From Caldilineales bacterium (GTDB lineage: Bacteria > Chloroflexota > Anaerolineae > JAAEKA01): a DNA stretch of 64,000 nt. The position numbers and the translations under genes are program-made. The stretch spans positions 141,883 through 205,882 of the forward strand of contig JAWKOJ010000007.1 in assembly GCA_041391245.1 (NCBI GenBank). Direction: 5' to 3'. A model generated the notes under the pieces. That model worked only from the letters and a program-made list of their open reading frames with translations, made no database searches and was not told where the DNA came from. Of this stretch, positions 8,511-42,066 are shown in pieces. Within the stretch, counting starts at the first letter, position 1; each line of letters opens with the position of its first letter.

Positions 8511-9487
8511 GCGACTTCCCCAATCGACACCAACTCTACGAAGATCTGATCAGCGCCCGCCAGGAGCTTAAACGTTCCCTGTTGTTTCTGACCAGCGACG
8601 AGACCCGCCAGCCGGGCGTCGACGCCGAGTGGTGCGTCCTCGATGTCCTGAGCCACGTGACCGGGCGCGAGGCAACCCTGTTCGCCGCTGTGCGCAACCT
8701 GGTCAACGAGGGCGATCCATGTTTCCCCGACCCGCTGGACGAGCGCGAGTTCAACCTGGCAGCCATCCGCCGACGCAGCGGCTTCACCATGGCCGAGGTC
8801 ATGGACGAGCTGGACAGTCTGCGCCACCAGATCATGAAATATCTGCGCAAGCTGCCCAACCAGGCGCTCTTTGGCGCGCACGAGGTACGCGCCACGGGCG
8901 AAATGCAAAGCATCGCCGACGTACTCAACGCCACGATTGCCCACGACCAGGTGCATGCCGATGGCATCTGGCAGTGGCGTGCTGAGGCCGGCTTGCTGCA
9001 TCTGGAGGACTTTCGCCGCCACATCGTGCGCGAGCGGAACGAGTTTCTCAACGCGATCGGTGGGATGCACGAAAGCGAGATGGTCTCGGTGGAGACGTGC
9101 GGCTACTGGACGGTGCGCGACCTGATGGCGCACCTGTTGAGCTGGGACGAGGAGATCTACCGGACCGTCAAGCACTGGACGGGCAAGCGGGACTGGCAGG
9201 ACGGTGCGCTGTACGACGACGAGTGGAACGAAAGCCAGGTCAACGCGCGCGCCAAGCTCGACGTCATCGAACTGGCCGATGGGTTGGCCACCTGGCACCG
9301 GCGCACCATCCAGTATTGCGACAAAGCAGCGCCGGCCGATCTGGTAGCCGTCGCGCGCGCCCCCTGGGGCGAGCCCATGGCGTTGTTAAGCTTGCTGTAC
9401 GAGATGGCCGCCCACGATGCCGTTCACCGCTTACAGATCGAAACCATGCGCGGCGGCAAGCCAAGAGGGAGAAGACGCAGACCCTGA
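8507..9487 (+). CDS. DinB-family protein (tandem DinB-like four-helix domains)
   Basis: The ATG at 8507 overlaps the fdhD stop (ATGA). Two repeats of the DinB pattern occur (W.V.DVLSH / W.VRDLMAH ... H...H). Confidence 0.7.
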   Translation: MSDFPNRHQLYEDLISARQELKRSLLFLTSDETRQPGVDAEWCVLDVLSHVTGREATLFAAVRNLVNEGDPCFPDPLDEREFNLAAIRRRSGFTMAEVMDELDSLRHQIMKYLRKLPNQALFGAHEVRATGEMQSIADVLNATIAHDQVHADGIWQWRAEAGLLHLEDFRRHIVRERNEFLNAIGGMHESEMVSVETCGYWTVRDLMAHLLSWDEEIYRTVKHWTGKRDWQDGALYDDEWNESQVNARAKLDVIELADGLATWHRRTIQYCDKAAPADLVAVARAPWGEPMALLSLLYEMAAHDAVHRLQIETMRGGKPRGRRRRP

Positions 9488-9506: not shown

Positions 9507-10380
9507 TCAACCGGCCAGCGCCGTCCTGGCCGCCGACATCATCACGTCCAGGGGCGCCTCGTGGCCGGTCCATATCTCGAACGCCGCCGCGCCCTGAGCG
9601 ACCAGCATCTCAAGGCCGCCCTGCGTAGCACAGCCGGCCGCGGCAGCCTGGCGCAGCAGGCGAGTCTGTTCCGGCCGGTAGACCAGATCGTAGACCAGCG
9701 CGCCCGGCGGCAGAGGCAGCTCGTCCGGCCAGGGCGATGCGTCGACGGTGGGCCACATGCCTACAGGGGTGGTGTTGATGATGAGGTCGGGAGGAGGACC
9801 GGAAACGGTGAACGGTGAATTGGTGAATTGGTGAATGGTTAATGCGGGGGAGAGGGACGCGGCATGTTGGGCGAGATCGGCGGCGCGGTCTGGGCTGCGG
9901 TTCCAGATCGACAGGCTGGCAATGCCGCGCACTGCCAGCGCATAGACCACGGCGCGCGCCGACCCGCCCGCGCCCAGCAGCAGCGCTGACTTGCCCGCCA
10001 GGTCGAAGCCGCGCTCGTCCAGCGGATGCAGGAACCCCAACCAGTCGGTGTTGTCACCGCGCAGTACCGCAGGACTGGCAGTCCTCGGAAGGACTGCCAG
10101 TCCTTGGTCCACAGTGATCGTGTTCACCGCGCCGATGACGCGCGCCGCTTCGCTTAGTTCGTCCATCAGCGGCATGACGGCCTGCTTGTGGGGATTGTCA
10201 CGTTGACGCCGCGGTAGCCCCTCGCCGGCAGCCCGCGCACCACCTGCGCCACATCGGCCGGCGCGGTCGGCAGCGCGTCATAGCGCCCTCCAACCCCAGC
10301 GCTGCAAACGCCGCGTTGTGCATCGCCGGACTGATGCTGTGCCCCAGAGGCCAGCCGATGAGGCCGGTGAGAAAGGTCAT
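9507..10380 (-). CDS. aroE: Shikimate dehydrogenase AroE, with two apparent frameshifts
   Basis: Three frame pieces join in order (10380..10282, about 10280..10195, 10175..9507): GLIGWPLGHSISPAMHN, NVTIP(H)K, GDNTDWLGF, GAGGSARA, NTTPVGM. One shift is a G4 run at 10190-10193; G5 would restore NVTIPHKQAVMP. Confidence 0.8.
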
Positions 10381-10382
10381 GG

Positions 10383-10794
10383 TTAGCCGAACAGCGGCTT
10401 TGCCACTCCAGCGCCTGCTGCGCCATGGGGAGCAGCTTCTGCGCGGCTACCGCGACGCCGCCGGCTGCCGCCAGCACCTTGGCGATCCCCTCCAGCTTGC
10501 TGGTGATGACCGCGGCGCTGGGCTGCGGCTTGGCGGCCTGCGCTTCGACCACCTGCACGTCGGCGTCGATGATCTCGGCCGTGTCGGGGTCCAGGCCGGC
10601 AGCGGGCAGCGGCGCGCAGCTCGGCCAGCAGTGCGGTGAACTCGGCCAGCGAGACGCCCTGCGGCGTTGACCTGGGTAATGGTCTGATCGCGGCCGACGA
10701 AGGCCCCGCCGCCGGTGTCCACGTTGCCGCCAATGTATGCCCTGCCGCCGGTGGTCACGCTGGCGGGCGGGGTGGGTGGTTGTTTGTCAGTCAT
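10383..10794 (-). CDS. Hypothetical small protein with a Gly-rich N-terminal motif shared with the DGR targets; frame-disrupted
   Basis: ATG at 10794 follows GGAGG. The N-terminus is MTDKQ...TTGGRAYIGGNVDTGGGAFVGRDQTITQV. Plausible helical sequence continues in the two other frames, with a TAA at 10383-10385. Confidence 0.4.
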
Positions 10795-10932
10795 GGGTAC
10801 CTCCAGAATGTAGTGTAGATGCGCAGCGATGTTTGGATCACGAAGTTGCGAATGTCCGCGAAGGCACGAAGGACGCAATTGGACAGACTTACCCGTCGCG
10901 CTGCTGGGGGACTGGCTCGAAAAAAATCGGCG

Positions 10933-10958
10933 ATTCGATGGGGCACGCCCCATCGAAT
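10933..10958 (-). other. GC-rich hairpin about 60 nt downstream of VR1, followed by a T-run
   Basis: attcgatgggg / ccccatcgaat with a 4-nt loop. The homologous hairpin after VR2 differs by compensatory changes. On the minus strand tttttt follows after a short spacer. Confidence 0.6.
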
Positions 10959-10998
10959 TCCGGACAGGATTCAGGAACCGGAACTCAGAAGCCAGCAC

Positions 10999-13914
10999 TC
11001 AGAACTCAGAATTCGCTAGGGACACCACCACTCGAAACCCGAGGTAGTCGCCGAAGTCGTCAGGAAAGCTCCTGAAGCGGTACGCGCAACGAGCATATGT
11101 TCTATCTACATAAAATGCACCGCCGAAGTGTGAAAAGCGGTTCTCTCCCCGACCAGCGCACGCGGTCCACTCCCAGACGTTGCCGCTCATGTCCCACGCA
11201 CCGACAGGCTGGCGCCGCCAGGATAGGTACAGATAGCGGTTGTTCCCATGCCCTGGCCCGTCTTCTCGGCCACGTTGGCGTTGGCGGCATTGAACTCGCC
11301 GAGCCAGGGATACTCGCGGCCATCGACGCCTCTGGCGGCACGCTCCCATTCCTGTTCGGACGGCAAGCGCACCCGGTAGCCGGGCGGGATGGGTTCGCTG
11401 CCGCCGCCGGCCAAGACACGGCCTGCGGGCCACTATGCAGCCAGTTGCCGTAGGCCTGGGCTTCGTACCAGGAAACGCCGACCACAGGAAAAATGGGGTT
11501 GCACAGGTCAGGATCGTCCCAGAAGAAAGGCCGGTTGCGCTTGTCCAGCGGACGCAATTCTAGAATCGTTGCGTATAAATCCCTCAGGCTTTTGGCCTCG
11601 ATCAACTCCAGATCGGTGTCCGCGCCCTGACGCCACGCCCAGCCTTCCTTGCTCCACCAGCGTTCGTTGTCGTAGCCACCATCGGCCATGAAGCGGGCAT
11701 ACTGGGCGTTGGTGACTGGATATCTGGCGATCCAGTAGCGATGGGAGATAATGCGTTCTTCTCGGGTATCGCCGTAGAGGAACCTGCCTGGCTCCACCGG
11801 GACGAACGTGTCCAGGTCATCCGGCTGCCAACCAAGCCTGCCCAGTGCCAGTCCCGCTCGACGGCGCAAGGTCGGCGGCACGGCCATGTCCTGCATCGTC
11901 TCCACCAGCGCTGCGACCACCGTCTCCTTGCAGGTCGCGGTCACGCCGTCGGGCCAGGCGTCCAGCACGGCCTCGCCGGCCAGTGTCACGGCTTCGCCGG
12001 GCGGGCCGGGGCGTTCGCTGGCCAGCGCCGCCGCCACTTCGCCGGCCGCCAGGGGGCGGCGCTGCACGATGCCCAGGTAGCCCACCGTCAACAGGCTGGC
12101 CTCGCGCCACACCGGGTCGCCCACGTGCTGGCCCAGGAAGGCCGTCACCGGCTGCAGGTCCACCTGCCCCAGGGCGGCGATGCCCACCGCGGCCAGATAC
12201 TCCTCGAAGGTCAGGTGGATGAAGCCGTACTGACCCTCGCCCCTTGCCAGCAGCAGGCCGGTCTCGGCCGGGATGTCGCGCAGGAACTGCGCGGCCGCCG
12301 CCGGCGGGACGGCCGCGCCCTGCCCGCGGTAGATCTCCTCCAACTGCTGGCGCAGCGCCCACTCCGACACCAGCCCCACTCCCGGGCTTTCCCCGTGGAT
12401 CCACAGCGCCAGCGGGGCCGGACGGCCACGGTGGCCACCGTCCAGCTCGCGCCGGGCGCCTGCCGGCCCATGCTCCTCGCCCGGTTCCAACTGGAGATCA
12501 GCGTCTCTACGGCCTGGTGGTAGAGCTGCACCCGGCGCTCCGGCAGGGCGACCCCCTGGCGCTTCATCATGGCCAGCATGGTCAGCAGCAGCGGATTGGC
12601 GGCCAGCCGGCGCGCGGCCGGGTTGCGCTGCACGGTGTCCAGTAGCTCCTGGCGCTCGCGGCGCGCGTCGGCCGCGCTGATGGCCGTGTCGCCCCCCGCC
12701 TGGCGTTCCAGGGTCGCCGTCCAACGGCCCACGAAGGCCTCGATCTCATCGTCGTCGAAGTCCACCAGCGTACACTCGGCCAGGCCGTCCTGGCGTGGGC
12801 CGCACCGCCCGGTAGCCGACGATGCGGCTGGTCAGCACGAACTTGTTGCCGCGTCGCTGCTGGCCGGTGCAGAAGTCCATCACCCGCTCCACCACCCGAT
12901 GGCGCAAGGCGGCCTGCCGCACCTCGTCCAGGCCATCCAGCAGCAGCAGCGCCCGGCCGTGGGCCAGCGCATCGCCCACCATCTCCTCCATGGGCAGGTC
13001 GAGGCCGCTCGCTTTGTACGCGCCGGCGATGAACCGGTCCAGGCGCAGGTCGGGATCGTTGCTCAGCGCGCCGGCGTAGTCGGCCAGCGAGGCCAGCAGC
13101 GGCAGCCGCTCGCCGATGCCCAGCCGCTCGCCGCGCCCAGCGCCAGTTGCAGCGCCAGAACCTTGAGGAAGGTGGTCTTGCCCGCCCCCGGGTCGCCCAG
13201 GATGATCAGGCCGTCGTGCCGTCCCAGGAGGTCCAGGACGGGCACAGGCTCGCCCAGCCGGCCGGCCAGCGCCAGCGCGTCCGCCTCCGCTTCAGCCGGC
13301 TCCAGCGGCCGGCCGGCCAGGCGCAAGTGGCGCTGCCAGGTCTCGCCCTCCGGCATCTCCAGCCGCGCCTTGAGCGGCACGTAGAGATCGAGGAGCGGCA
13401 GTTGCAGGGGTATCCGGTCGTGGACGCCCATGCCCTTCAGTTGCAGATAGCGGTGGCGGTCCAGCAGATAGGTCAGGTAGGCCTCGGTCGCCCGGCGCAG
13501 CGCGGCGGGATCGCCGGCGGCCGGGCTGGCGCGTTTGCTCAGTTCGCCGGCGGTTTGGATCACCAGGTCGCGCTCGACGCGGATGCTGGTGATGTTGCCA
13601 CCGCCGGTGACGATGCTGTCGCGGCCGGTCCAATCGCCGCCATTGGTGCTGACGCTGCCGCCGACATAGGCGCCGCCGCCCGTATCAACGGTAGTGGTGG
13701 CCGCGGGCGACGGCTGGCGGCTGCGCCGGTAGCCCAGCACGGCCAGCAGCGCGCCGCCGGCCAGCAACAGGAGCTGCACCAGCGCCTCCAGGCCCTGGAT
13801 CAGCTCGCTGTTGGCCTCCGTGAAGCTCAGCAGGGCCGGCAGCCACAGCCGCGCGGTCAGGCCGAGCACGATAAGCAGCAGAGCCAGCAGGAGGAGCGGG
13901 AGGTAGCGTTTCAT
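10999..13914 (-). CDS. DGR target 1: N-terminal TM segments, STAND/NACHT-type P-loop NTPase and C-terminal FGE-sulfatase (C-type-lectin-fold) domain; at least 5 frame disruptions
   Basis: ORF pieces 13914..13063, 12991..12746, 12765..12211, 12724..11102, 11414..11187 and 11433..10999 join in order. Walker A is GDPGAGKTTF and Walker B LLLLDGLDEV. The FGE-type segments are RYPVTNAQYARF, VVGVSWYEAQAY, GNVWEWT and ARCAYR...GFRVV. Confidence 0.8.
11020..11094 (-). repeat. DGR variable repeat VR1 (3' end of target 1)
   Basis: Aligns without gaps to TR 14246..14320. There are 12 differences, all at TR coding-strand adenines. Confidence 0.9.
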
Positions 13915-13934
13915 GGGCGTCTCGTGTGCTGAGG

Positions 13935-14021
13935 CAGGACTGGCAGTCCTTGAGTCGAGCGGCAGACCTGGCCGTCGCGTCGAGACTTGCTACAGGGTAG
14001 GGCCAAGGACTGCCAGTCCTG
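13935..14021. repeat. Perfect 18-bp inverted repeat between the TR and the target-1 start
   Basis: caggactggcagtccttg (13935-13952) pairs with caaggactgccagtcctg (14004-14021). The same 15-mer word pair recurs inside aroE at 10071-10104. Confidence 0.8.
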
Positions 14022-14191
14022 ATGCGCCCCCGCGCCGCGCCGCCGTATGCGGTCAGGGCGCGGGGACCGGACGATATTTGGCCGGCCGCTGTGCGCAAGG
14101 CGAACAACGGACGCGACCCGGGCCGGACCGGGCTAGCTTTTGGGGCGCCGTCCCGCATCGCTGTGATGGCGGGATCTACCGGCCGGGACTT

Positions 14192-14225
14192 AAGTGCCGG
14201 GCACTTCGGAAAGTGCCCGGCACTT
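14192..14225. repeat. Palindromic hairpin 20 nt 3' of the TR (minus-strand sense)
   Basis: aagtgccgggcactt (14192-14206), cgga, aagtgcccggcactt (14211-14225): a 15-bp stem with a 4-nt loop. Confidence 0.8.
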
Positions 14226-14245
14226 GCCGCTTGGGGAAAAGCCAT

Positions 14246-14320
14246 GGACACCACCACTCGAAACCCGTTGTTGTTGTTGAAGTTGTCAGGTATGTTCCTG
14301 TTGCGGTACGCGCAACGAGC
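14246..14320 (-). repeat. DGR template repeat (TR)
   Basis: Minus-strand core AAC AGG AAC ATA CCT GAC AAC TTC AAC AAC AAC AAC, flanked by invariant anchors gctcgttgcgcgtaccgc and gggtttcgagtggtggtgtcc. It lies 40 nt after the avd stop. Confidence 0.9.
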
Positions 14321-14360
14321 GGCGGTGGTCCGGCCCGAGAGAACGCAGGCCGCAAAACTC

Positions 14361-14708
14361 TCACGGCCGCGGTTTCTCCTTCAACGATTCCATCCAGCCG
14401 CCCAGCAGTCGACCCAACTCGTCCACCATACGGGAGACGTGAGCGTATTGGCCGGGCGTCAGCAGTTCCAGGTCGCTGCACAGGCGCAGGTAGGTGCGCA
14501 GTTTTGTCAATGTGACGTCGGCCTCGCGCAGCTTCTGCTGCGGCGCTGGACTGTAGGCGGCCTCGATCAGTTGCTCCTGCCAGGTAAGCGCGGTGCGCTG
14601 TACGGCTTCAGCCAGCACAAAGCGCTGCTGGCGAGGGAACTTGATTGTAGCCGGAATCAACCAGCGGAGCAAGTCATAGGTGCGGGTGAAGATGGGAGAT
14701 TGCTGCAT
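14361..14708 (-). CDS. avd: DGR accessory variability determinant (Avd-like four-helix-bundle protein)
   Basis: ATG at 14708 (MQQSPIFTRTYDLLRWLIPATIKFPRQQRF...). It is about 115 aa, basic and helical, matches the Avd/23S-IVS-protein pattern, and overlaps the RT 3' end by 35 nt. Confidence 0.8.
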   Translation of the reverse strand: MQQSPIFTRTYDLLRWLIPATIKFPRQQRFVLAEAVQRTALTWQEQLIEAAYSPAPQQKLREADVTLTKLRTYLRLCSDLELLTPGQYAHVSRMVDELGRLLGGWMESLKEKPRP

Positions 14709-15774
14709 GCTGATACCTTGGCACGGGCGCGGCCAACAACGAGCGTCGCAGACCGCGCGTGTCACCGTGGCGCGCGTGGGCAATCCATCCCTGCACGCGG
14801 CGCTGCAACTCCTCGTAGGTCAGATCGCCGGCGGCTACGGCGCGGTAAGCAATGCGCAGCCGGCGGGCAAATGCCACGCCGTTGCGCCGCTTCAGCCGCC
14901 GGTGGTCGGGAAAGACACGGAAGCCCAGAAACGGAATGCCGCCGGCCACCGGGTAGACGGTGCTCTCGCGCTCGTGTAGCGTCAGTCGCAGGCCGGCCAG
15001 CAGGCTGCGGATCGCGGCTTTCCAGGCCCAGAGCTGGCGCTTGTCGTCGGCGAAGAGCAGGAAATCATCGACGTAGCGCAGGTAGCCCTGGCAGCGCAGG
15101 CGGCGCTTGACAAACTGGTCGAGCTCGTTGAGATAGACGTTGGCCCAGAACTGGCTGGTCAGGTTGCCGATGGGCAGGCCGCGCGGCCGCTGCATGGCGA
15201 ACAGGTCGTCGCCGGGAAACATCACCGGCTGGTAGATCTCGTCCAGCACGCCCTGCCCGCCGGCCAGGATGCGGTCCGCCAGCCACAACGCCTTCGGATC
15301 GACGATCTTGCGGGCGATGACGGCGCGCAGTATTTGGTGGTCCACCGAAGGAAAGAACTGCTCGACATCGCACTGCAGCACGTAGGGATAGCGCCGCGCG
15401 AAGGCCTGGGCGCGGTCCAGCGCGGCGTGCGTGCCCTTGCCCACCTGGTTGGCGTAGGAGTCGCCGATGAAGGTGCGCTGGAAGATCGGCTCGATGACGT
15501 TGCACAGCGCGTGATGCACCACCCGGTCGCGGAAAGGCGCGGCCGATACCAGCCGCCGCTTGGGATCGCGGATGGTGAACGAGCGGTACGGGCCGGGCCG
15601 GTAGGTCAGAGCGAGCAGCTCCTCTTCCAATCGCAAGAGGTTGCTTTCCAGGTCGAACTCGAAAGCGGCGACAGAGCGCTGGCCGCGTTTTCCTCTGGCG
15701 GCCTTGCGAAAGGCCTGGTGCAGGTTCTCGAAGGAAGCGATGGTCGGATAGAGGTCGGCGTAGGATTCCGTCAT
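14674..15774 (-). CDS. DGR reverse transcriptase
   Basis: ATG at 15774 (MTESYADLYP...). RT motifs include the DGR-diagnostic LPIGNLTSQFWANVYLNELD (IGxxxSQ) and the catalytic RYVDDFLLF. Confidence 0.92.
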   Translation of the reverse strand: MTESYADLYPTIASFENLHQAFRKAARGKRGQRSVAAFEFDLESNLLRLEEELLALTYRPGPYRSFTIRDPKRRLVSAAPFRDRVVHHALCNVIEPIFQRTFIGDSYANQVGKGTHAALDRAQAFARRYPYVLQCDVEQFFPSVDHQILRAVIARKIVDPKALWLADRILAGGQGVLDEIYQPVMFPGDDLFAMQRPRGLPIGNLTSQFWANVYLNELDQFVKRRLRCQGYLRYVDDFLLFADDKRQLWAWKAAIRSLLAGLRLTLHERESTVYPVAGGIPFLGFRVFPDHRRLKRRNGVAFARRLRIAYRAVAAGDLTYEELQRRVQGWIAHARHGDTRGLRRSLLAAPVPRYQHAAISHLHPHL

Positions 15775-15854: not shown

Positions 15855-15878
15855 TTCGCCGGGGCGTGCCCCGGCGAA
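15855..15878 (-). other. GC-rich hairpin about 60 nt downstream of VR2, followed by a T-run
   Basis: ttcgccgggg / ccccggcgaa with a 4-nt loop. It is the covarying counterpart of 10933-10958. Confidence 0.6.
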
Positions 15879-15918: not shown

Positions 15919-18900
15919 TCAGAACTCAGAATTCGCTAGGGACACCACCACTCGAAACCCGACGTCGTAGCCGAAGCCGTCAGGAACGCCCCCGTAGCGG
16001 TACGCGCAACGAGCGAACCTTTGTTCTAAATACCAGGATCCGCCGCGCACGATGCGCAGGTCGGGGCCGGCCAGCGTCTCGCGGCCGTCGGCGGGGTCGT
16101 AGGGGTAGCCGTAGTCCGGCCTGGCCGTTTTGCCGCCCCACTTGCTGCGGGTCCACTCATAGACGTTGCCTGCCATGTCCAGCAGGCCATGCGCGCTGCG
16201 GCCGTCGGGGAAGAGGCCCACCGGGCTGGTCTGCTCCAGGCCGGCCTCCTCCGTGGCCCGTCACTCCTGCCAGCCGCCTTACCACGGCCACGCCGGCCGT
16301 CGCCGCTAACGCTCCGCCTTCTCCCACTCGGCCTCGCTGGGCAGATGCGCACCGGTAGCCGGGCGGGATGGCGACGGACTGGTCCGCGACCCGCAGCACG
16401 CCGCCGGACGCCCGCAGCCGGCCGTCCAGCCACCTGCACCAGGCCAGCGCCTCGTACCACGAAACGCCCACCACCGGCCGGTTGGCCGCGCCCCACCTGG
16501 GGTCGTCCCACCACCAGGGCTTCTTGCGCTTGTCAACGGTTCGATCTGCCAGCCAATCGGCGATGTCCTTGCGCAGATCCTCTGGCAGGTCGTCGTAGGG
16601 CGACAGGTCGGGATCCGCTCCGTTGCGCCAGGCCCAGCCTTCGTCTGTCCAGTAGTCCGGGTTGTCGTAGCCGTCCCCCTCGACGAAGGGGCGGAACTGG
16701 GCGTTGGTCACCGGAGTAGCGCGCCACGAAGTACAGCGGCAGGTCCACCCGGTGGGCGTCCCGCTCATCGTCCCAGGCCATATCCGTCGCTCTCGTCGCT
16801 TCCCATGGTGAAGGCCCGGCCGGATGGCCTGCCCAGTCGATGTCAGGCAGCGGCGACAGCCCATCCACCAGGCCGACGCCGGGCCAGGTCGCCCAGCTTG
16901 CCCAGGGCATCGCCGGCCCGCGAACTCGCCGGCCGTCAGGCGGCCGCCTTCGACCAGACGGACCAGCCAGTAACGGATGGCGCCCAGCAGGTCGCCGTAG
17001 TCCTGTCCCTCGCGAACCCGGTCCGCCAGCCGCAGCTCGGCGGCTGCCTCGCCACCAGCCCCACCATGCGCCAGCCAGCTCGTTGCGGCTCCCTGGCCGG
17101 ATTGAGGGGCGCTTAGCTCCTTCGGGAGCGTACCGCCGCTGCCGATGCCGCCGCACCCGTGGGCAGCAACAAGATCTCGCGCCACCAGTCCATGTCCTCG
17201 TCTTCAGCTCCTGAGGCGCTGGTAGAAGTCGGTCTGGTCGAACAGGTAGCTGGCGGCCAGGTATTCCTGGAAGGAGCGGTGCGGAAAGGCGTAAACCTCC
17301 TCCCGGCGTGGGATCAGCAGCCCCGCCCGATGGTGGAGATATTCCAGCAGCGTGTCCGGCGCCACCTTGCCCAGCAGCGGTTTGAAGGCCCACAAGACCC
17401 GTTCCACGGGGATGTCGGCCGGCGCGTCGCGTCCCTCGGCGTCCTGGCGTTGGCGTTCCTGGGCGTCGGCCAGCTTGTTGAGCGCCGTGCGCAGCGGGCC
17501 TTCGCCTGTCTCCAGCACCTGTAGAATCCCCGGCTCGACCACCGGCTGGCCGCCAGGGCCGACCGCCTCGCGCGCCCGCTGCCAGCGGGAGAGCAACAGG
17601 CTGACCGACTGCTCGTACAGATCGGCCCGATCCTCGGGCAGCTGACCGCGACTGGAGTGCAAGGTCGCCATCAGCGTCAGCAGCAAAGGCGAAGGTGGCC
17701 AGGTCGGCCAGATAGGGCGCTCCACCAGAGCCTCCTGCAGATCTGGCCCTTCTTGCGCGCCGTCTCCTCGCTCCACCCCATGGCCGGACGCACCGCCTGC
17801 TGCCAGCGCCCGATGAAGCGCCTGCTGTTCTTCATTGAAAGGCGCCAGGGCAGGGTCGTGAAGGCCTCCAGCCGCCACTGCGGATCGGCGTAGGCGTAGG
17901 GGCGGGCGGTGACCGAAATCGTCCGGTGTCTGCGAGGCAGCGTGGCCGCCATTCCGGCCACTGCTTCCAGCGAAGGGTATGGCGGCAGCGGCCGGCCTCC
18001 GGCGCTTCGTCCAGGCCGTCCAGCAGCACCAGTCCGCCTTCCTGGCACAGCCGCCGCTGGACCTCCGGCAGCAGCAGCGCCGCGGCCAGTTGGCCAGAGC
18101 GCGTGCCAATATCCGCTTCAGCGCCTGCCACAGCATGCCGGCATCGCCGCGGCGGGCGTCAGCCGGGATGTGCTCGGCCGCCACACTCGCGCGGGATCGG
18201 GCGCGACAGCCGGCCCTGCAGGATGTCGGGCAGAAGGCCGGTCTGCCGGAGCGGTCGGGGTCGGCCAGCAGGTAGCTCAGATGGTTGACGAAGGTGGTCT
18301 TGCCGCTGCCGGCGTCGCCCACCAGGACCGAGCGCGGCTCGCTGGCCAACGCTGCCAACGCAGGCACGCGGCCGCCTGCTTCACCCAGGCCGCGCACCAG
18401 CCGCAGCGCCCAGCCGCGCTCGGTCTCCGCCTCTCTGGGCGCCGAGGGGATCACATCCAGGTCCACGTAGACATCGGGCAGCGGAATGGTCTGTTGTTCG
18501 CCGGTTCCCAGCCACTTGGCGTCGATGACGCCCAGCGGCGAACGGCGACAGTCGGCCGCCAGCCACTGGTAGTAAGCGTGCAACAGCGTATCCACCGGCG
18601 CCAGCTCGGGCGCAAGTCGTTGGCGCTCGCCAGAAACGTTGATCACGATAAGACCGTTTGCGTCGCCGCCGACGATGAACGAGCCATCGGCCAGCGTTGC
18701 CATCACCTTGTCGCGCCCGACGAACTCGCGCGCTGAAACATTGCCGGCCACCAGAGACCCGCCGCCGGTATTGATCTGAAGTGCTGCAGTTGAGCCTCAC
18801 TGCGGCGCAGCGACTCGCACCTCGCCGGCGCCGGCTGCCGCCAGGAGGCTGGCAATGAGGTCACCGCACCCGCTGCAAATTGCTGCGCAGCGTGTCGAGA

Positions 18901-18920
18901 TCGATGGGCAAGTTTGTCAT
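15919..18920 (-). CDS. DGR target 2: STAND/NACHT-type NTPase with C-terminal FGE-sulfatase-fold domain; heavily frame-disrupted (at least 10 breaks), possibly a pseudogene
   Basis: ATG at 18920 (MTNLPIDLDTLRSNLQ). Recognisable pieces include VLVGDAGSGKTTF, LVLLDGLDE, SPLLLTLMATLH, FPHRSFQEYLAA, ARYPVTNAQFRPF, VVGVSWYEALAW, PSEAEWEKA and GNVYEWT...ARCAYR...GFRVV, scattered over all three frames. Confidence 0.7.
15940..16014 (-). repeat. DGR variable repeat VR2 (3' end of target 2)
   Basis: Aligns without gaps to TR 14246..14320. There are 14 differences, all at TR coding-strand adenines. Confidence 0.9.
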
Positions 18921-18997: not shown

Positions 18998-20302
18998 CTA
19001 ACCATTCTCTAGCTCCGCGCCCAGGCTTGCCAGCATGCGCTCGAAGCCGGGGAAGCTGTCGGCGATGCAGCCGGTGTCCTCGACCAGCACCGGACCGTCG
19101 GCCGCCAGCCCGGCTACGACCAGCGCCATGGCCAGGCGGTGGTCCCCGTGGCTGTTGACCGGCGCGCTGCGCAGCCTGGTCGGACCCTCGACCACGAAGC
19201 CATCGGGCCGCTCCTCGATCTGTGCCCCCAGGGTACGCAGCTCGGCCACCACTGTCGCGATGCGGTCGGTCTCCTTGACGCGCAGCTCGGCCGCGTCGCG
19301 CACGACGGTGCGACCAGTTGCCTGGGTGGCCAGCACCGCGATCACCGGCAGCTCGTCGATCAGGCGCGGGATCAGCGCGCCGCCGATCTCTGCGCCGCGC
19401 AGCTGGCCGGGCTGCACGACCAGGTCGGCTACCGGCTCGCCGGCCTCGTCGCGCAGGTTATCGGCGCGCACCGCGCCGCCCATCTGCGCCACGATGTCGA
19501 GAATGCCGGTGCGGGTCGGGTTGACGCCCACAGCCTCCAGGGTGACGTGGCCGCCGGGCGCCAGCAGCGCCGCGGCCAACAAGAACGCGGCCGAGGAGAT
19601 GTCGCCCGGCACGGTGATGTCCAGCGGCAGGAGCGGGCGCTTGGGTCGTTCGCTCGCGATGACCTGGCCGACCCGGCCCGCCTGCGCGCCCATCGCAGTC
19701 AGCATCCGTTCGGTGTGGTCGCGGGTCGGCGCCGGCTCGCGCACGACAGCCAGCCCGTTGCTGTAGAGGCCGGCCAGCAGGATGGCCGACTTGACCTGCG
19801 CGCTGGCTACCGGCATGGCGTAGTCGACGCCGCTCAGCGGGTGTCCTTGAATGGCCAGCGGCGCCTGCCTGCCGCCCTGCCGTCCGTGAATGGTCGCGCC
19901 CATCAGTCGCAGCGGTTCTACGATGCGGCCCATGGGACGACGGGTCAGTTGCGCACTGCCGTCGAGGATGCTGAAGAACGCCTGGCCGGCCAGCAGGCCG
20001 GCCAGCAGGCGCATGGTCGTGCCGGAGTTGACGCAGTCCAGCGGGCGCGCCGGCTCCTGCCAGCCGTGCAGTCCGGCGCCGTCGATGCGCAGTTCGGTCG
20101 TGGCTGGCTGGTCGATGGTCACGCCCAGCGATCGCAGCACACCGACGGTTGCCAGGCAGTCGCCGCCGGGCAGGAAGTTGCGGATGCGGCTCTCGCCCTC
20201 GGCCAGCGACGCAAACATGGCGGCGCGGTGCGAGATCGACTTGTCGCCGGGGACGCGGGCGGTACCGAGAAGTTCCTGGGCAGGATGGATGATGAGGTTC
20301 AT
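18998..20302 (-). CDS. aroA: 3-phosphoshikimate 1-carboxyvinyltransferase (EPSP synthase)
   Basis: 434 aa. Contains VPGDKSISHRAAMFASLAEG, NSGTTMRLL and DHRLAMA. Confidence 0.92.
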   Translation of the reverse strand: MNLIIHPAQELLGTARVPGDKSISHRAAMFASLAEGESRIRNFLPGGDCLATVGVLRSLGVTIDQPATTELRIDGAGLHGWQEPARPLDCVNSGTTMRLLAGLLAGQAFFSILDGSAQLTRRPMGRIVEPLRLMGATIHGRQGGRQAPLAIQGHPLSGVDYAMPVASAQVKSAILLAGLYSNGLAVVREPAPTRDHTERMLTAMGAQAGRVGQVIASERPKRPLLPLDITVPGDISSAAFLLAAALLAPGGHVTLEAVGVNPTRTGILDIVAQMGGAVRADNLRDEAGEPVADLVVQPGQLRGAEIGGALIPRLIDELPVIAVLATQATGRTVVRDAAELRVKETDRIATVVAELRTLGAQIEERPDGFVVEGPTRLRSAPVNSHGDHRLAMALVVAGLAADGPVLVEDTGCIADSFPGFERMLASLGAELENG

Positions 20303-20373
20303 GGGACTCGTGATGCGTGAAGGATGAAACGTGATGCTTATTGCGTCGAGGTGACTGTCACCTGGATGGCGGG

Positions 20374-21276
20374 CTATGCCCCGTGTTGATCGATGAAAGC
20401 CTGCCGGCGCGCCTGGATCGATTGCAGCGCTTGGCGCAGGGCCTGGTCGTCGTCACCGGCAACCAGGCTGGCAAGCTGGTCGAGCTGGCTGCGCAGCCGG
20501 TCGATGTGTTCCAAAACGGCCGCCCGGTTGCTGTGCAGGATGTCGGCCATCATCAGTGGATCGCTGCCGGCCAGCCGGGTTGTGGAACGAAAGCCGCCCG
20601 CGGCCAGTTGCCAGATTGTTTCGTCGCCATCCGCCTGCTCAGCAGCAGCCGCGAAAAGAGCCGCTGATGCGAGATAGGGAACGTGGCTGATGGCGGCCGC
20701 CAGCCGGTCGTGGCGCAGCGGGTCCAGCTCCAGCGGGCACGCGCCGATTGCCTGCGCCAGTGCGGCCGCCAGCGCGGTTGCCTGCGGCTGCGTGCCCGGC
20801 AACGGACAGAGGATGAACGGGGCATCGCGGTAGAGACTGCTTTCGGCGACGTCCAGCCCGGAGGTTTCCTTGCCGCACATGGGATGGCCGCCGACCGGCT
20901 GCACACTGGCTGGCAGCCGCGCCATGGCGTCGCAAATGGCGGCCTTGGTGCTGCCCATGTCGGTGAGCACGACGCCGTCGCGCAATCTGCCCTGCCTGGC
21001 CAGCGCGCCGACTTCCCCGATCTGGCGCAGGATGATGCTCACCGGTGTCGCCAGGACGATCAGGTCCGCGTTGCCGGCCGCGCTGAGATCGCTCGCGCCG
21101 TCATCGATTGCGCCGATGGCCAGCGCCTGCTCAACCGTTTCGGCGCGGCGGGCGATGCCAAGCACACTTTGCACACGGCCGCGCAGCGCCAGCCCCAGCG
21201 ATCCGCCCATCAGTCCCAAACCGGCTATTGCCACCGTGCAGCCGGCCAGGGGTTTGTCGTATGCGAAGCTACTCAA
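20374..21276 (-). CDS. tyrA: Prephenate/arogenate dehydrogenase
   Basis: An N-terminal GxGxxG (IAGLGLMGGSLGLAL) precedes the prephenate dehydrogenase core (GGHPMCGKE). Confidence 0.8.
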   Translation of the reverse strand: MSSFAYDKPLAGCTVAIAGLGLMGGSLGLALRGRVQSVLGIARRAETVEQALAIGAIDDGASDLSAAGNADLIVLATPVSIILRQIGEVGALARQGRLRDGVVLTDMGSTKAAICDAMARLPASVQPVGGHPMCGKETSGLDVAESSLYRDAPFILCPLPGTQPQATALAAALAQAIGACPLELDPLRHDRLAAAISHVPYLASAALFAAAAEQADGDETIWQLAAGGFRSTTRLAGSDPLMMADILHSNRAAVLEHIDRLRSQLDQLASLVAGDDDQALRQALQSIQARRQAFIDQHGA

Positions 21277-21312
21277 GGTTGTCCTTTGTTGGGAGCAAAC
21301 GGCAAACGATCA

Positions 21313-28606: not shown

Positions 28607-31600
28607 TCAGTGATCGGCCAGCCAGCGCAGCGCGAGCGACGTCACCTGCCCGGAACGGCGCAGTTTGACCACATCCAGCGCGTCGGCAGTGTCCTTGGTT
28701 GTGTTGGCATCGTCGTCCGCGTCGGCCCAGATGACCAGCGTGGCAGGCAGGCCGGCGCGCTGGAACGACGTCTGGTCGCCGGTGTCCTCTGCCTGCCTCA
28801 CATCGGCCCGGACGCCGAGCGCCAGCGCCGCGAACGCCAGCGACTGGTTGGTCAACGCCTCGCGGTTGCGGTCGCCCTCGTAGGTCAGGAAGAAGCCGCG
28901 GCCCGCGCCCACGTCGTCCAGGTTCAGCATGCCCAGCGTCGCCGTCAGCGGCACGGACGGGTTGGCGAGATAGGCGCGCGAGCCGGCTTGTGCCACCTCG
29001 TCGCCGTCCCAGGCCGCGAAGAGCACCGGGCGGGCCGGCTGCACGCCGGCGGCGCGCCAACTGCGCGCGATCTCCAGCAATGTTGCGACGCCGGCCGCGT
29101 TGTCGTTGGCGCCGGGGTAGATCGTGCCTGCGCCGTCCACGCCTGGCCCGTCCAGGTGGGCGCTGACAATCACTACTTCGTCGGCCAGCGCCGGATCGCT
29201 GCCCGGCAGCAAGCCCAACACGTTGGCGCCCTGGCGCGTCCCGATCTCGCTCAGTGGCACTGCAACCTCGGCCGTCAAGTCGAGCCGCAGCGCGGCCGGC
29301 GCCGTGTTCAGCTCCACCAGCGTGTGACCGGAGAAGGTCAGCAGTTGCTCGAAGGCATCCTGGGTCAACTCCAGCACCGGGATCGTCGGCGTTACGATCT
29401 GGCTGCCGTCGATGGGCGTGCGCGAGCTCATTCGGTTGGGACCGGGCGCGGTCAGCAGGATCAGCGCTCCTGCGCCCGCCTCGGCCGCGTTGCGTATCTC
29501 CGTGTCCAGCAGCTCGGTCGGATCGCGTAACACGATTTTGCCGTCCAGCGCCATGCCGTCGTAGCTCGGATCGCGCACCCAGACCACCGGCCCGCTGGCC
29601 TGCCCGCCCAGCGCGTGGCCGCCTGTCCGCTCCAGGAAGTCGGTGCGGTAGGCAAGTTCCAGTGTCTGGTCGCCCTGCCGGAGCGTCAGCGCCGGCGGCG
29701 CGCTCGGAACGGTATGGCTGATAGCAAAGGTCTGCAAGAACGTGTTGGCGTCGCCAACAGGCTCTAGATTCAACTCGGCAAAGGCATTGACGATCTCGTC
29801 GGCCGCGTTGCGCCCGCCGTCCGTCCCCGTCTCGCGGCCCGCGAACTCGTCGCCGGACAGCCGGGTCGCTTCGGCCAGCGCGCGCTCAGCGTCGAAGCTC
29901 TCGGCCAGCGCCAGCCACTCGGGCGGCGCGTGGAGCACGCCCGCGGTCGCCAGCCAATCCTGCTCGAAGTCGTCCAGCGAAACGCCCAGCGCGGACTGCA
30001 TGGCAGCGTCCGTTGTCGCTCCATCCGCCAGCGCTGCCAGGAGGTTGCTCAACCCCTCGCTGCCAAAACGCTGGATGAGATAGCTGGCGGAGTCCCACGC
30101 TTCGGCCTGCGCCAGTGTTTTGGCGGTCGAAGCCAGGGCGGCTGGATCGGGAAGCTGGCTCAGCGGCCAGAAGCGGCCCTGCTGGGCCGCCAGCGGTATC
30201 TTGTCGGCCAGCCGGTTGGCCTGCTGCCAGCCGATGTTGGGATCGACCCATTGCAACGCGATGCGGCCCAGGCCGGCCCGCAGCCACAGGGTGTCGGTCG
30301 TCGGTTGCACGCCGATCTGGGCCAGCAACTGTGCGACGATGGGATCCAGCAGCTCGTTGCGGACGTCCGTCACGGCGGCCGCGCCCTGCTGAGACTTGAC
30401 CACAACGTGCAGCGACCCGCCGGGGACCGGTACCGCAGCCGCGCCCGCCGGCAGATCGTGCCCGGCCGCCAGACTGAGCGCCAGGTCGTTGGTGTACAGC
30501 TTGACCGTCAAGGGCGCCGGTTCAACGCCCAGCGCGGCGGCCACCGTCCGGTAGGCGTGGTCCAGCAGCGGTGTGAGCGCCTCGGCCAGCGCCTGGCTGG
30601 CGGCCGGGGACAGCACGGTCACCGGCCCCGACTGCGTCGCCATCCACGAAGGTCCGCCGTAGGTGAGTTGGCCGTCGCGCAGCGGCAGCCAGACGGTCTG
30701 CCTGACCTGGCGCTGCCGGTCATCTCCGGCCTGCCAGCTTGCCATCAGGTCGGCCAGCATGCCATCGGCAGTCAGTCCCTTGAGTTGCCCGGTCAGTTCG
30801 AAGTTGGTCAGCGGCGAGGCCAGGGTCTGGCTGCGGTCGAACCAGGCCGCGTCGTCGGCCAGTTGGAGCGGGTTGGTTGGGTCGCCCGTTGCCAGGAACG
30901 CGGCCCGGTCGCCGGTTTCCACAGCAGCCTGCCGCCGCGCCAACAACTCGTCGATCTGCGCCTGCGCACCGTCGATGCGGTCGCGCCAGCTTGCCTGCCA
31001 GCCTGCATCGAACTCAGCCGCCGACTGGCCCAGCGCTTGCTGGAACGCCCGCGCCGCTCCGTCCGTATCCGTTGTCTGCGCCAGCGCCGCTGCCAGGTCG
31101 CCGGCCCCTGGCAGGCCGTGCCCCTCCAACAGGTAGCCGGTCATGGCCCAGGCCTGCGCGTTCCAGAAGGGCGTGCCGGCCTCGCTGCGCAGCGCCGACG
31201 GGAAGTCGGTCGCGCTGAAGGGCGCGGGATCGACCAGCATCTGGCGCAGCACCGACAGGTATCTCTCGGCCAGCGCTTCCCGGTCGCCCGACGCGGCGAG
31301 ATAGTCCGGCAGCGCCCGCCAGAGCCAGGGCGCCTGGGCTTCGCTGAGGCCGGTCTGCGCCAGCGCGAGGAGCGTCAACGTGTCGGTCAGCGCCCTCGTG
31401 CGGGTGATGCCAGCGCTGGCCACGACGTGCGCCTGGTTCCCGGCTGCCCACGAGGTGACGGTCTCGGGCAAGGTCAGCCCTGCGGCTGCCTGCATGGCTT
31501 GATGCGATGGGTGCAGGGTCAACGTGGCGGCCGGGCGGCGCTGCGACAGACCCAACTGGCGCGCGATGGCTGCCCGCTGCGCGGTTGCCCTGTCCAGCAC

Positions 31601-33635
31601 CTGGGGCGCGATCTCGGCCAGGCTGGGCGGGTAGGCCAGCGTCAGCCCGTCGCCGGTCAGGCGCTGCATGGCGGGGCCGGCCAGCCGCCAGCCGTCCGCG
31701 CCGCGCGTCGCCAGGACCGTGCCGTCGACGCGCTCCCGTTGCCCGCCGGCCGGTGTAATCTCGTAGCGGATCGTGGCGGTCGCCACGTCGCCCGCCACGA
31801 CCGCGTCGACCAGGCTGGCCGACAGGCTCTCCGGCCGGTTGCTGGCCGTCGAGTCCCACCAGGCGGCGTCGGCGGCGCGCTCGGCTGCCGTGCTGGTTGC
31901 CAGGAATGCGCTCCGGTCGCCGGCGTTGAACGCCTGCGCGCGCTGGTCCAGCATCGCGGTCAGCTCCGGCTCGGCCGCGGCCAGGCTGATCAGCGTCATG
32001 CCGGCCAGTTCGCCGACAGCCTGCAGCTTGCCCGGCTCGATCACCGCGGGCGTGTCCAGGGGCCGGTGGTAGTGCGCCAGCTTGGGGTTGCCTTCCTGGT
32101 CTTCGCCGAACCAGATCACCATCGAGGCGTCGACGCCAGCCAGCCGGAAGGGCACATGGTCGCTGCGGCCGATGTCGCCCAGAGTGGTGGTGATGCCAAA
32201 GGTTGGCGCGAGGCCGATCAGACGGTCGGCCACCGGCCCCGGCCCGTCTACGGCCAGTTCGTCCGCGCCCGCGCCCACCATATCCAGGTTCAGCACGCCG
32301 GCGATGTCCTCCAGCGGCACGGTCGGCGCTTCGGCGAAATGAAACGATCCCCACAGCCCCTGCTCCTCGGCGTCCCAGCCGGCGAAGAGAACGCTGCGGC
32401 GCGGCCGGAAGCCGGCTTCCTGCCACGTTCTTGCGATCTCCAGCATCGTAGCGATGCCGGACGCGTTGTCGTTGGCGCCAGGGTAGACCGCGCCCTGGCT
32501 GGTGGCGCAGGTCTCGGGGTCGTCGATGGCGTCGCGCGTGCACAGTTCGCCGGCCGGGTCGCTGCCCAGGTGATCGTAGTGGCCGCCGACCACCACGACC
32601 TCGCCGGCGAAGGCCGGATCGCTGCCGGGCAGGATGCCCAGCACGTTGCGGCCCTCGACACCCTCCTGCTGTTCCAGGGCGACGCTCAGATGTGCGTTGG
32701 TTTGCAGCGGCAGCCCGGCGAACTGGATCGACAGGTCGTCGAAGGTGTAGCCGCTGCCGGCCAGCAGATCGTCCACGACCGAGGGGTCGATGAGGAACGC
32801 CGGCAGTGGCACGGGCACCAGCGGCACGTTGTAGCGGCCGATGCGGTCGATGGGCGCGTCCGGATCGCCGACCAGCAGCAGGCCGGCCGCGCCGTGTTCG
32901 ATGGCGTTGCGGGTCGGATCCTCGCCGCCACCCTGGCGGCAGAGCGCCACTGCGCCGACGGCGTCGATGACGTCGAAGTCCTCGTGACGGCAGTAGTTGG
33001 CCCAGACCACCGGGCCCTCGGCGTCGCCCTGCCCCGCGTAGTTGCGCACGTAGGAGCTATAGTCTTGGCGAAACTCATACGGTCCGGCTGCCTGGCCGTC
33101 GGGTCCGAACACCTCCAGCACCGGCGGCGCGGTGTAGGTCACAAAGAAGTCGAGGGGAAACTGCTGGAAGTAGCTGCGGCTGCCGTCAGGCTGGAGGTCG
33201 CCGGCCGGCTGAAGTCCGTAGCCGGCGAAGGCGGCCGCGATGGCGTCCCCGGCCGCCCGGCCGCCTTCGGTGCCGGCGCGCCGGCCGGCGAAGGGCGCGG
33301 CGGCCAGCTCAGCGATGCGCGCCTCAGCGGCCGCGCCGTCGAAGCTGCGCGCCAGTGCCAGGTAGTCCACGCTGCCGGACGCCTGGCCGGCCGCGTCGGT
33401 GATCCACCACCCCTGCGCCCCGTCCTCGACCTCGACCGCGGCGGGCGCTGGCTGCGCGGCCGCATCGACCGCGTCAGGCGCGTTGCCGGCCGGTGCGTCT
33501 TCCGGCGCGAGTACGACGGGCTGCACGGCCGGCTGGTTCTGCTGGGTCCACCAATAGCCCAGACCGGCGGCCCAGACAAGCAGCGATCCAGACGATGATC
33601 AGCAGGCGGCGGTGTTTGGCGGTTGTTTCGGACAT
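28607..33635 (-). CDS. Very large N-terminally anchored protein with two PA+M28 aminopeptidase modules flanking an internally duplicated middle region (one frameshift near 33570)
   Basis: ATG at 33635 ([20 protein letters not shown]...) joins ORF 33526..28607 after a 1-nt shift. Module 1 has [22 protein letters not shown] and SDHVPF. Module 2 has [22 protein letters not shown] and GDQTSF. Confidence 0.8.
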
Positions 33636-42061: not shown

Positions 42062-42066
42062 ACCAG

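Follow-up and report, generated by a model that had tools for sequence, protein, structure and literature searches.

A diversity-generating retroelement with two frame-broken NACHT-FGE target genes and a motif-sharing partner gene in a Caldilineales bacterium

Results

Arrangement of the locus

The genome of a Caldilineales bacterium (GenBank assembly GCA_041391245.1) was found to carry a diversity-generating retroelement (DGR) in a 64,000-nt stretch of contig JAWKOJ010000007.1 (positions 141,883 to 205,882). This whole stretch is referred to here as the window, and coordinates are counted from its first base. The DGR cassette includes a reverse transcriptase (RT) gene, an avd gene, a template repeat (TR), two large target genes, designated target 1 (T1) and target 2 (T2), each ending in a variable repeat (VR1 and VR2, respectively), and a small gene downstream of T1. 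The G+C content of the window is approximately 66%, and the genes relevant to the DGR, located at 9.4-19 kb, are all on the minus strand, where their order is T2 - RT - Avd - TR - T1 - small partner gene. The cassette is inserted between aroA with the prephenate dehydrogenase gene (18998-21309) on one side and aroE (9507-10385) on the other. A sister species, represented by the loci L090, L091 and L092, shares this chromosomal context, with an EPSP synthase gene upstream and the aroE and chorismate synthase genes downstream, and this favours a chromosomal element over a phage-borne one.

The RT gene (14674-15774) is intact and of the DGR type. Its product matched the Pfam family RVT_1 (E 3.3e-16) and includes YVDD (15075-15064) and the segment IGNLTSQ (15171-15151), which corresponds to the [I/L/V]GxxxSQ motif of DGR-type RTs. 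The avd gene (14361-14708) is likewise intact, and the protein it encodes was recognised by both Pfam PF22296 (bAvd, 71.3 bits, cut-off 40) and NCBIfam NF033474 (DivGenRetAVD, 99.8 bits, cut-off 80). The open reading frame (ORF) of the RT extends about 10 codons beyond the stop of the orthologous RT, which lies at the Avd start, such that RT and Avd overlap by 35 nt compared with 4 nt in L092; another small indel near the 3'-end of the RT gene may account for the longer overlap.

Template and variable repeats

The core of the TR (14246-14320, minus strand) is 75 nt long, contains 20 adenines and four consecutive AAC codons, and encodes ARCAYRNRNIPDNFNNNNGFRVVVS. It could be aligned without gaps to VR1 (11020-11094) and to VR2 (15940-16014), both on the minus strand, and all 12 mismatches to VR1 and all 14 to VR2 fall on TR adenines, i.e. 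26 of 26 mismatches on the 20 adenines of the TR. The non-adenine positions of VR1 and VR2 are thus still identical to the TR. When the adenines of the TR core were masked, exactly three matching sites were detected in the window (TR, VR1 and VR2) versus none in 100 shuffles, and the TR/VR relation is therefore far beyond chance. In both targets the VR forms the last 25 codons of the C-terminal FGE domain described below. With RT, Avd, a 75-nt TR and two VRs, the retroelement is complete. Near-identical strains of the sister species differ at 9-12 positions inside each 40-nt VR and, judged from these alignments, the VRs are diversified in that species.

The identity between the two target genes extends past the repeat. 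A segment of 81 nt, of which 21 nt close the core and 60 nt lie past it, is 100% identical between T1 and T2, while the target proteins share only 32% amino acid identity; the 60 nt past the core comprise six codons, the stop codon and 39 nt of 3' untranslated region. A hairpin with a 10-bp GC-rich stem and the loop CGTG is found approximately 45 nt past the T1 stop (10934-10957, minus strand) and is followed by a T-run, with a fold z-score of -3.5. Its equivalent after T2 (15855-15878, minus strand) has the loop CACG, and the stem of the two hairpins is preserved by compensatory changes. They are candidates for the target-recognition hairpin of a DGR and/or for a terminator, and could simply be terminators.

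Domain architecture of the targets

T1 (10999-13914, minus strand) is a gene of about 970 codons, with a start codon (ATG) at 13914 that is in frame with the stop at 10999. An initial annotation of the sequence had treated it as one gene product; it is not a single ORF, as the frame is broken five times (near 13142, 12793, 12419-12425, 11418 and 11209), and Walker A and Walker B are consequently in different frames. The frames of T1 and T2 were stitched by frameshift-aware protein-to-DNA alignment against intact homologues, and the domain scores given here are from the stitched proteins. The individual T1 motifs quoted in the initial annotation, namely two hydrophobic segments, a Gly-rich motif, Walker A, Walker B and the C-terminal ARCAYR-x12-GFRVVVS in VR1, were all found on the minus strand.

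The N-terminus of T1 is predicted to form a helical hairpin that serves as a membrane anchor (13729-13902). Its hydrophobic segments, at 13902-13828 and 13782-13729, gave 19-aa Kyte-Doolittle peaks of 2.51 and 2.21 and correspond to helices 5-34 and 36-65 of the AlphaFold2 model. Basic residues occur at both ends of the hairpin (MKR..., ...RRSR) and, on the positive-inside rule, T1 would be anchored in the membrane with the bulk of the protein in the cytoplasm. The hairpin is followed by the Gly-rich motif TTVDTGGGAYVGGSVSTNGGDWTGRD (13618-13695), which belongs to a family consensus TxGGAxVxGxVxxxGGDFxGRD. Walker A, GDPGAGKTTF (13168-13197), and Walker B, LLLLDGLDEV (12920-12949), have frame offsets of 0 and 2, respectively. 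In an alignment of 90 sequences of the T1 family, the Gly-rich motif is conserved, G240-T248 of Walker A are invariant or nearly so, and L324, L325, D326, G327, D329 and E330 of Walker B are invariant. The FGE-sulfatase, or C-type-lectin-fold (CLec), domain at the C-terminus (11002-11800, start approximate) is spread over three reading frames and matched Pfam PF03781 at residues 703-961 (E 5.6e-37).

T2 (15919-18920, minus strand) is paralogous to T1, and its 3002 nt are not a multiple of 3. A motif search located the Gly-rich motif near its N-terminus (18775-18710), Walker A as GDAGSGKTTF (18319-18290) and Walker B as LVLLDGLDEA (18032-18003). T2 had been described as having the same architecture as T1, and this holds for the NACHT-FGE core and the Gly-rich motif. 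It does not hold for the membrane anchor: of the predicted topology, the two hydrophobic segments are confined to T1, and no hydrophobic segment was detected at the N-terminus of T2 (maximum hydropathy 1.21).

Both domains of the initial annotation were detected above the Pfam cut-offs. NACHT (PF05729, cut-off 26.7 bits) scored 41.7 bits for T1 and 29.0 bits for T2, and FGE-sulfatase (PF03781, cut-off 23.3 bits) scored 128.2 and 142.2 bits, covering profile positions 3-254 and 20-254 of 255, respectively. From 5.8 billion proteins, at least 1,433 homologues were retrieved at E <1e-20. The best 120 of these all contain PF05729 and PF03781 and are 835-1,216 aa long, mostly 850-980 aa; the closest among them are intact and 77-81% identical.

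An AlphaFold2 model of stitched T1, with a mean predicted local distance difference test score (pLDDT) of 81.2 and a predicted template modelling score of 0.77, displays the N-terminal helical hairpin, the Gly-rich stretch in a disordered state (pLDDT <50), an alpha/beta NTPase with helical domains, and a C-terminal mixed domain. The pLDDT is approximately 62-66 for the residue blocks that immediately precede the VR and reach its start (921-940). Foldseek matched the first part of the model to NLRC4 (3.3e-11), NOD2 (2.1e-10) and NLRP3 (8e-9), and the last part to ToxD, EgtB, OvsA and FGE, in agreement with the CLec fold that had been predicted. The model thus has the NLR-like order of nucleotide-binding, helical and winged-helix domains. 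T1 and T2 are thus NACHT/STAND NTPases with a helical domain and a C-terminal FGE-type C-type-lectin-fold domain that ends in the VR.

Homologues are named 'SUMF1/EgtB/PvdO family nonheme iron enzyme' in public records, and the PDB sequence matches of the C-terminal domain were EgtB, OvsA, ToxD, SUMF2 and FGE, of which EgtB and OvsA were the best, as would be expected if the domain were a formylglycine-generating enzyme or an EgtB- or PvdO-like oxidase. This is considered highly improbable. The NCBIfam models for such enzymes scored far below their cut-offs (EgtB 79.7 versus 360, SenA 71.6 versus 420, PvdO 24.7 versus 500), and the alignment of 90 sequences has no conserved cysteine between GGSW and ARCA, the site of the catalytic pair in human FGE. 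The closest PDB match of the last 88 aa was SUMF2, presumably a non-catalytic and inactive paralogue of FGE. The adenine-linked differences are, moreover, in the last 25 codons, which is also where ligand-binding variable proteins of DGRs have theirs.

Frame breaks in the targets and in other genes

The number of breaks in each gene, and the amino acid identities, were determined by alignment to the intact cassette of L092 from the sister species. T1 has 5 frameshifts and no in-frame stop (80% identity), T2 has approximately 23 frameshifts and 3 in-frame stops (75%), and the small downstream gene has 3 frameshifts and no in-frame stop (90%), while RT (80%) and Avd (88%) have neither. The T2 stops are TGA, TAA and TGA at 16264-16310 and near 17110, where the orthologues have sense codons. 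Alignment at the DNA level with an 83%-identical relative traced the breaks in T1 and in the small gene to the loss of 1-2 nt within short G/C runs or CG repeats. In T2, the extra base seemed to be T at seven of ten single-base 'insertions'; this was rejected as a product of the aligner, which changes frame on reaching the first stop codon, a triplet that always starts with T. What the DNA-level alignment shows is simple deletion of 1-2 nt in G/C runs.

The DGR targets are not the only genes affected, as housekeeping genes in the window are broken too. aroE has 2-3 frameshifts, murJ (41986-43635) is split into matches to Pfam profile positions 1-313 and 342-437, and the methylmalonyl-CoA mutase gene (50229-51888) into matches to positions 24-151 and 298-512, the latter two genes each continuing in another frame. 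Most other genes of the window are whole, and aroA has no frameshift. An intact ORF of 1,663 codons (28607-33598, minus strand) is located in a region of 70-72% G+C, and high G+C content alone is therefore not the cause of the breaks.

The sister species provided a further comparison. In L092, an ENA contig with a SPAdes-style name (NODE_..._cov_15.8) that is taken, on the basis of this name, to be a short-read assembly, the whole cassette is intact, with T2 (1007 aa), RT (356 aa), Avd (115 aa), T1 (978 aa), a 196-aa gene, a 138-aa gene and aroE. The two other assemblies of this species, L090 and L091, are 97-98.6% identical to L092 and have 12 and 61 small indels. These are concentrated in the cassette and co-locate with blocks of mostly synonymous strain divergence, the flanks being 100% identical. 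Strains with such identical flanks differ by 1-8% within T2, RT, Avd and T1, again mostly at synonymous sites and in blocks, and the cassette is thus a strain-variable hot spot. Off-target adenine mutagenesis by the RT was considered as a source of this divergence and rejected, as the substitutions are not confined to adenines and mostly affect third codon positions.

As the breaks are 1-2-nt gaps in short G/C runs that also affect housekeeping genes, and as L092 is intact while L090 and L091 are rich in indels, the frameshifts are read with good confidence as errors in the consensus of a long-read metagenome assembly, at a region that varies between strains, a reading drawn from these alignments. 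T1 and T2 would then probably be intact in the organism. Two observations weigh against this: the density of indels follows gene borders oddly, falling from approximately 23 in T2 to 5 in T1 and 3 in the small gene with none in RT, Avd or aroA, and the three in-frame stops of T2 are unexplained by single 1-nt deletions. They could instead indicate that T1 and T2 are real pseudogenes in a cassette decaying in this strain, where the intact RT, Avd and TR may still write into the VRs of dead genes. The many breaks of T2 beside an unbroken RT and Avd, which lie between the targets, fit such decay, as do the broken cassette genes of L090 and L091, and the identity of the VRs to the TR at non-adenine positions fits ongoing homing into a functional or a dead gene alike. 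However, every break is of 1-2 nt with no larger deletions, and aroE, murJ and the mutase gene are broken in the same way. The identity to intact orthologues is as high for T1 and T2 (75-80%) as for the intact RT (80%), and higher for the small gene in spite of its three shifts. The differences from the orthologues are still concentrated at third codon positions, and the breaks in the sister species are at different places in each assembly, with none in L092. Decay of the targets is accordingly regarded as unlikely.

No second sequence of the species of the window was returned by exact look-ups of RT (with two start codons), aroA, the first T1 fragment, the 1,663-aa ORF and protein P0187, and a metagenome scan with stitched T2 yielded only relatives of at most 52% identity.

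Small partner gene and the Gly-rich motif

Downstream of T1 is a small gene of approximately 137 codons (10385-10794, minus strand). Despite its frameshifts, its product is recognisable by 90% amino acid identity to the intact 138-aa protein P0121, and consists of a Gly-rich motif VTTGGRAYIGGNVDTGGGAFVGRD (10758-10687) and a C-terminal four-helix domain. The motif, with the consensus TGGGAYVGGNVxTGGGDFVGRD, is common to T1, where it follows the membrane hairpin, to T2, where it is near the N-terminus, and to the N-terminus of the small protein. The deposited annotation has at this place (10166-10558, minus strand) a chimeric 130-aa 'hypothetical protein' (MEZ4768459.1, locus tag R2844_08530), which joins the end of the small gene to out-of-frame sequence and to the beginning of aroE.

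The small-protein family has 76 members of approximately 135-160 aa, and the Gly-rich motif is its most conserved part, being nearly invariant in 52 of the small proteins (T15 G16 G17 G18 A19 Y20 G22 G23 V25 ... G34 R35 D36). In an AlphaFold2 model of the small protein the motif is disordered and the remainder is a four-helix bundle, for which Foldseek returned generic four-helix bundles alone from the PDB (E 0.14 or worse). No match to the small protein was obtained in Pfam or NCBIfam. For its C-terminus there was a weak match (E 6.9e-7) to PDC-M14B, which PADLOC lists as a candidate phage-defence protein, and in distant relatives the Gly-rich motif is fused to EAD1 or TCAD2, both of which are domains of conflict systems.

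The small gene was also present after the second target in L081 (7946-8362), in L084 (approximately 11178-11654), a more distant locus with an RT 74% identical, in L090 and in L092 (9336-9752). In L092, T1 and the small gene are separated by a gene (8631-9221) for a 196-aa protein with a hydrophobic N-terminus. No counterpart of it was found at 10795-10998 of the window, where just 205 nt separate T1 and the small gene.

From its distribution, the Gly-rich motif may act as an adaptor. More specifically, it is tentatively suggested to be an uncharacterised homotypic signalling adaptor, possibly of a beta-solenoid or amyloid-like type, that couples both NACHT sensors to a dedicated four-helix partner. 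Were this so, the locus would represent a bacterial analogue of NLR/HET-s-type signalling joined to a hypermutating receptor.

Related loci

A scan for related RTs, with one genome per GTDB species, yielded 206 loci, almost all in Chloroflexota, in which the homologues of T1 and T2 are single-frame ORFs. Among the 29 loci with enough flanking sequence, a target is present on each side of the RT in 11 and only upstream in 16. The pairing of two paralogues with one TR, which the initial annotation had singled out, is hence not unusual. According to Doré et al. (2024, PNAS, PMC10907252), the DGRs of multicellular bacteria, including filamentous Chloroflexi, commonly have two targets with CLec and NACHT/nSTAND domains, and many of these targets have uncharacterised N-terminal extensions. 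Other reports concern FGS domains that are linked to DGRs in NTPase conflict systems (Kaur et al. 2020, PMC7159879) and, in cyanobacteria, DGR targets that carry signalling domains (Vallota-Eastman et al. 2020, PMC7517822). This kind of system is therefore already described, and two paralogues on one TR are typical of it.

Other genes of the window

Two ORFs between the TR and T1 (14176-14481 and 13915-14257) had no family match in a Pfam search. At 53899-55332 (minus strand) an ORF encodes long Thr/Pro/Ala-rich low-complexity repeats (TPTATP...) followed by a C-terminal domain that contains Cys and Trp.

Discussion

Possible mode of action

The arrangement of domains in T1 and T2 suggests the following model. 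The tip of the lectin fold would provide a hypervariable, non-enzymatic ligand pocket, and binding of a ligand would release the NACHT module for nucleotide binding and oligomerisation, in the manner of NLRs and of the antiviral STAND proteins of bacteria. Signalling could then proceed from the clustered N-termini, in the cytosol for T2 and, for T1, at the inner face of the membrane, where T1 would be held by its two-helix hairpin. As the Gly-rich motif is common to both N-termini and to the adjacent small four-helix protein, the output step would most likely be a homotypic interaction between them. Two points weigh against this model: the ligand, the oligomerisation, the motif-mediated recruitment and the outcome are inferred from architecture only, and no PADLOC model recognises the NACHT-FGE protein. 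On balance it is fairly likely that the locus is a chromosomal DGR of a Caldilineales bacterium with two NACHT-FGE targets, when this is taken together with the sensor model and with the frame breaks as artefacts.

The same architecture could also serve a role other than defence, in which the NACHT proteins tune signalling or kin/self recognition in a filamentous bacterium. Cyanobacterial DGR targets have been interpreted as regulatory proteins (Vallota-Eastman et al. 2020, PMC7517822). No fused toxic effector domain was recognised on T1 or T2 by Pfam, the missing PADLOC model would be in keeping with such a role, and the cassette is among genes of aromatic amino acid biosynthesis, not in a defence island. 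On the other hand, NACHT/STAND proteins with variable C-terminal sensors are experimentally antiviral according to the summary in PMC10907252, and the small partner provides two further links to defence, namely the weak match of its C-terminus to PDC-M14B and the conflict-system domains EAD1 or TCAD2 of its distant relatives. A non-defence role appears rather improbable, if somewhat less so than decay of the targets.

With the window, a clear example from Caldilineales joins the recently described NLR-like putative antigen sensors that retroelements hypermutate in multicellular bacteria, and that have been proposed to provide a form of adaptive immunity. What is new and of most use here is the caveat on sequence quality and the motif-sharing partner. 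Because consensus errors pile up in the cassette, such loci will be overlooked or wrongly labelled when long-read metagenome-assembled genomes (MAGs) are annotated automatically, and the small protein is a concrete candidate for the output step of the NACHT sensors.

Comparison with known systems

The prototype variable proteins of DGRs are Mtd of Bordetella phage BPP-1, a phage tail-fibre receptor-binding protein, and TvpA of Treponema denticola, a surface lipoprotein. T1 and T2 resemble them in the position of the VR at the C-terminal end of a C-type-lectin/FGE-type fold, in the AAC codons of the TR, in adenine-specific mutagenesis and in the presence of Avd, but here the fold is fused to a predicted cytoplasmic NACHT switch. 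Antiviral STAND proteins (Avs, bNACHT) and animal NLRs (NLRC4, NOD2, NLRP3) likewise contain NACHT with Walker A and B followed by helical domains, and share the tripartite order of N-terminal output, NTPase and C-terminal sensor. In T1 and T2, however, the sensor would be a single hypermutated lectin-fold domain in place of TPR, LRR or WD repeats, and there is no fused nuclease, TIR or protease.

Caldilineales are filamentous bacteria. Filamentous hosts are also a feature of BASS, which together with the fungal HET-s/NWD2 pair belong to the NLR-associated amyloid motifs (Dyrka et al., bioRxiv 10.1101/2020.01.06.895854). As at the locus studied here, a short motif occurs in those systems at the N-terminus of an NLR-like protein and in an adjacent small protein, and the BASS motifs, too, are rich in G, N and V and predicted to be disordered in the monomer. 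The BASS motif is at the C-terminus of an effector with a Bell domain, whereas the motif of the window is at the N-terminus of a four-helix protein, in which family searches detected no Bell domain.

In the cyanobacterial DGR targets (PMC7517822) and the FGS conflict systems (PMC7159879), as is the case here, a multidomain intracellular NTPase or signalling protein ends in a DGR-diversified FGE/CLec domain, and in the systems of Kaur et al. (PMC7159879) the same adaptor is present on the core protein and on a neighbouring gene. These are mostly vWA-MoxR ternary systems or kinases, while the proteins of the window are of the plain NACHT type, with no MoxR or vWA gene seen adjoining the cassette, and the element shared within the window is a short Gly-rich motif, not a folded EAD.

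There is also a likeness to clade 5D of Doré et al. (PMC10907252), exemplified by DGR 3 of Thiohalocapsa PB-PSB1. The window differs in its host, a Caldilineales MAG, in its frame-broken genes, and in an N-terminal extension that consists of a Gly-rich motif shared with an adjacent small protein, a feature of which the passages of that paper that were consulted make no mention. The likeness, which rests on architecture and host, is in the two targets per RT, in the single CLec and central STAND NTPase of each, in the N-terminal extensions with no characterised domain, in one target being membrane-associated, as predicted here for T1, and the other not, and in the multicellular or filamentous nature of the hosts.

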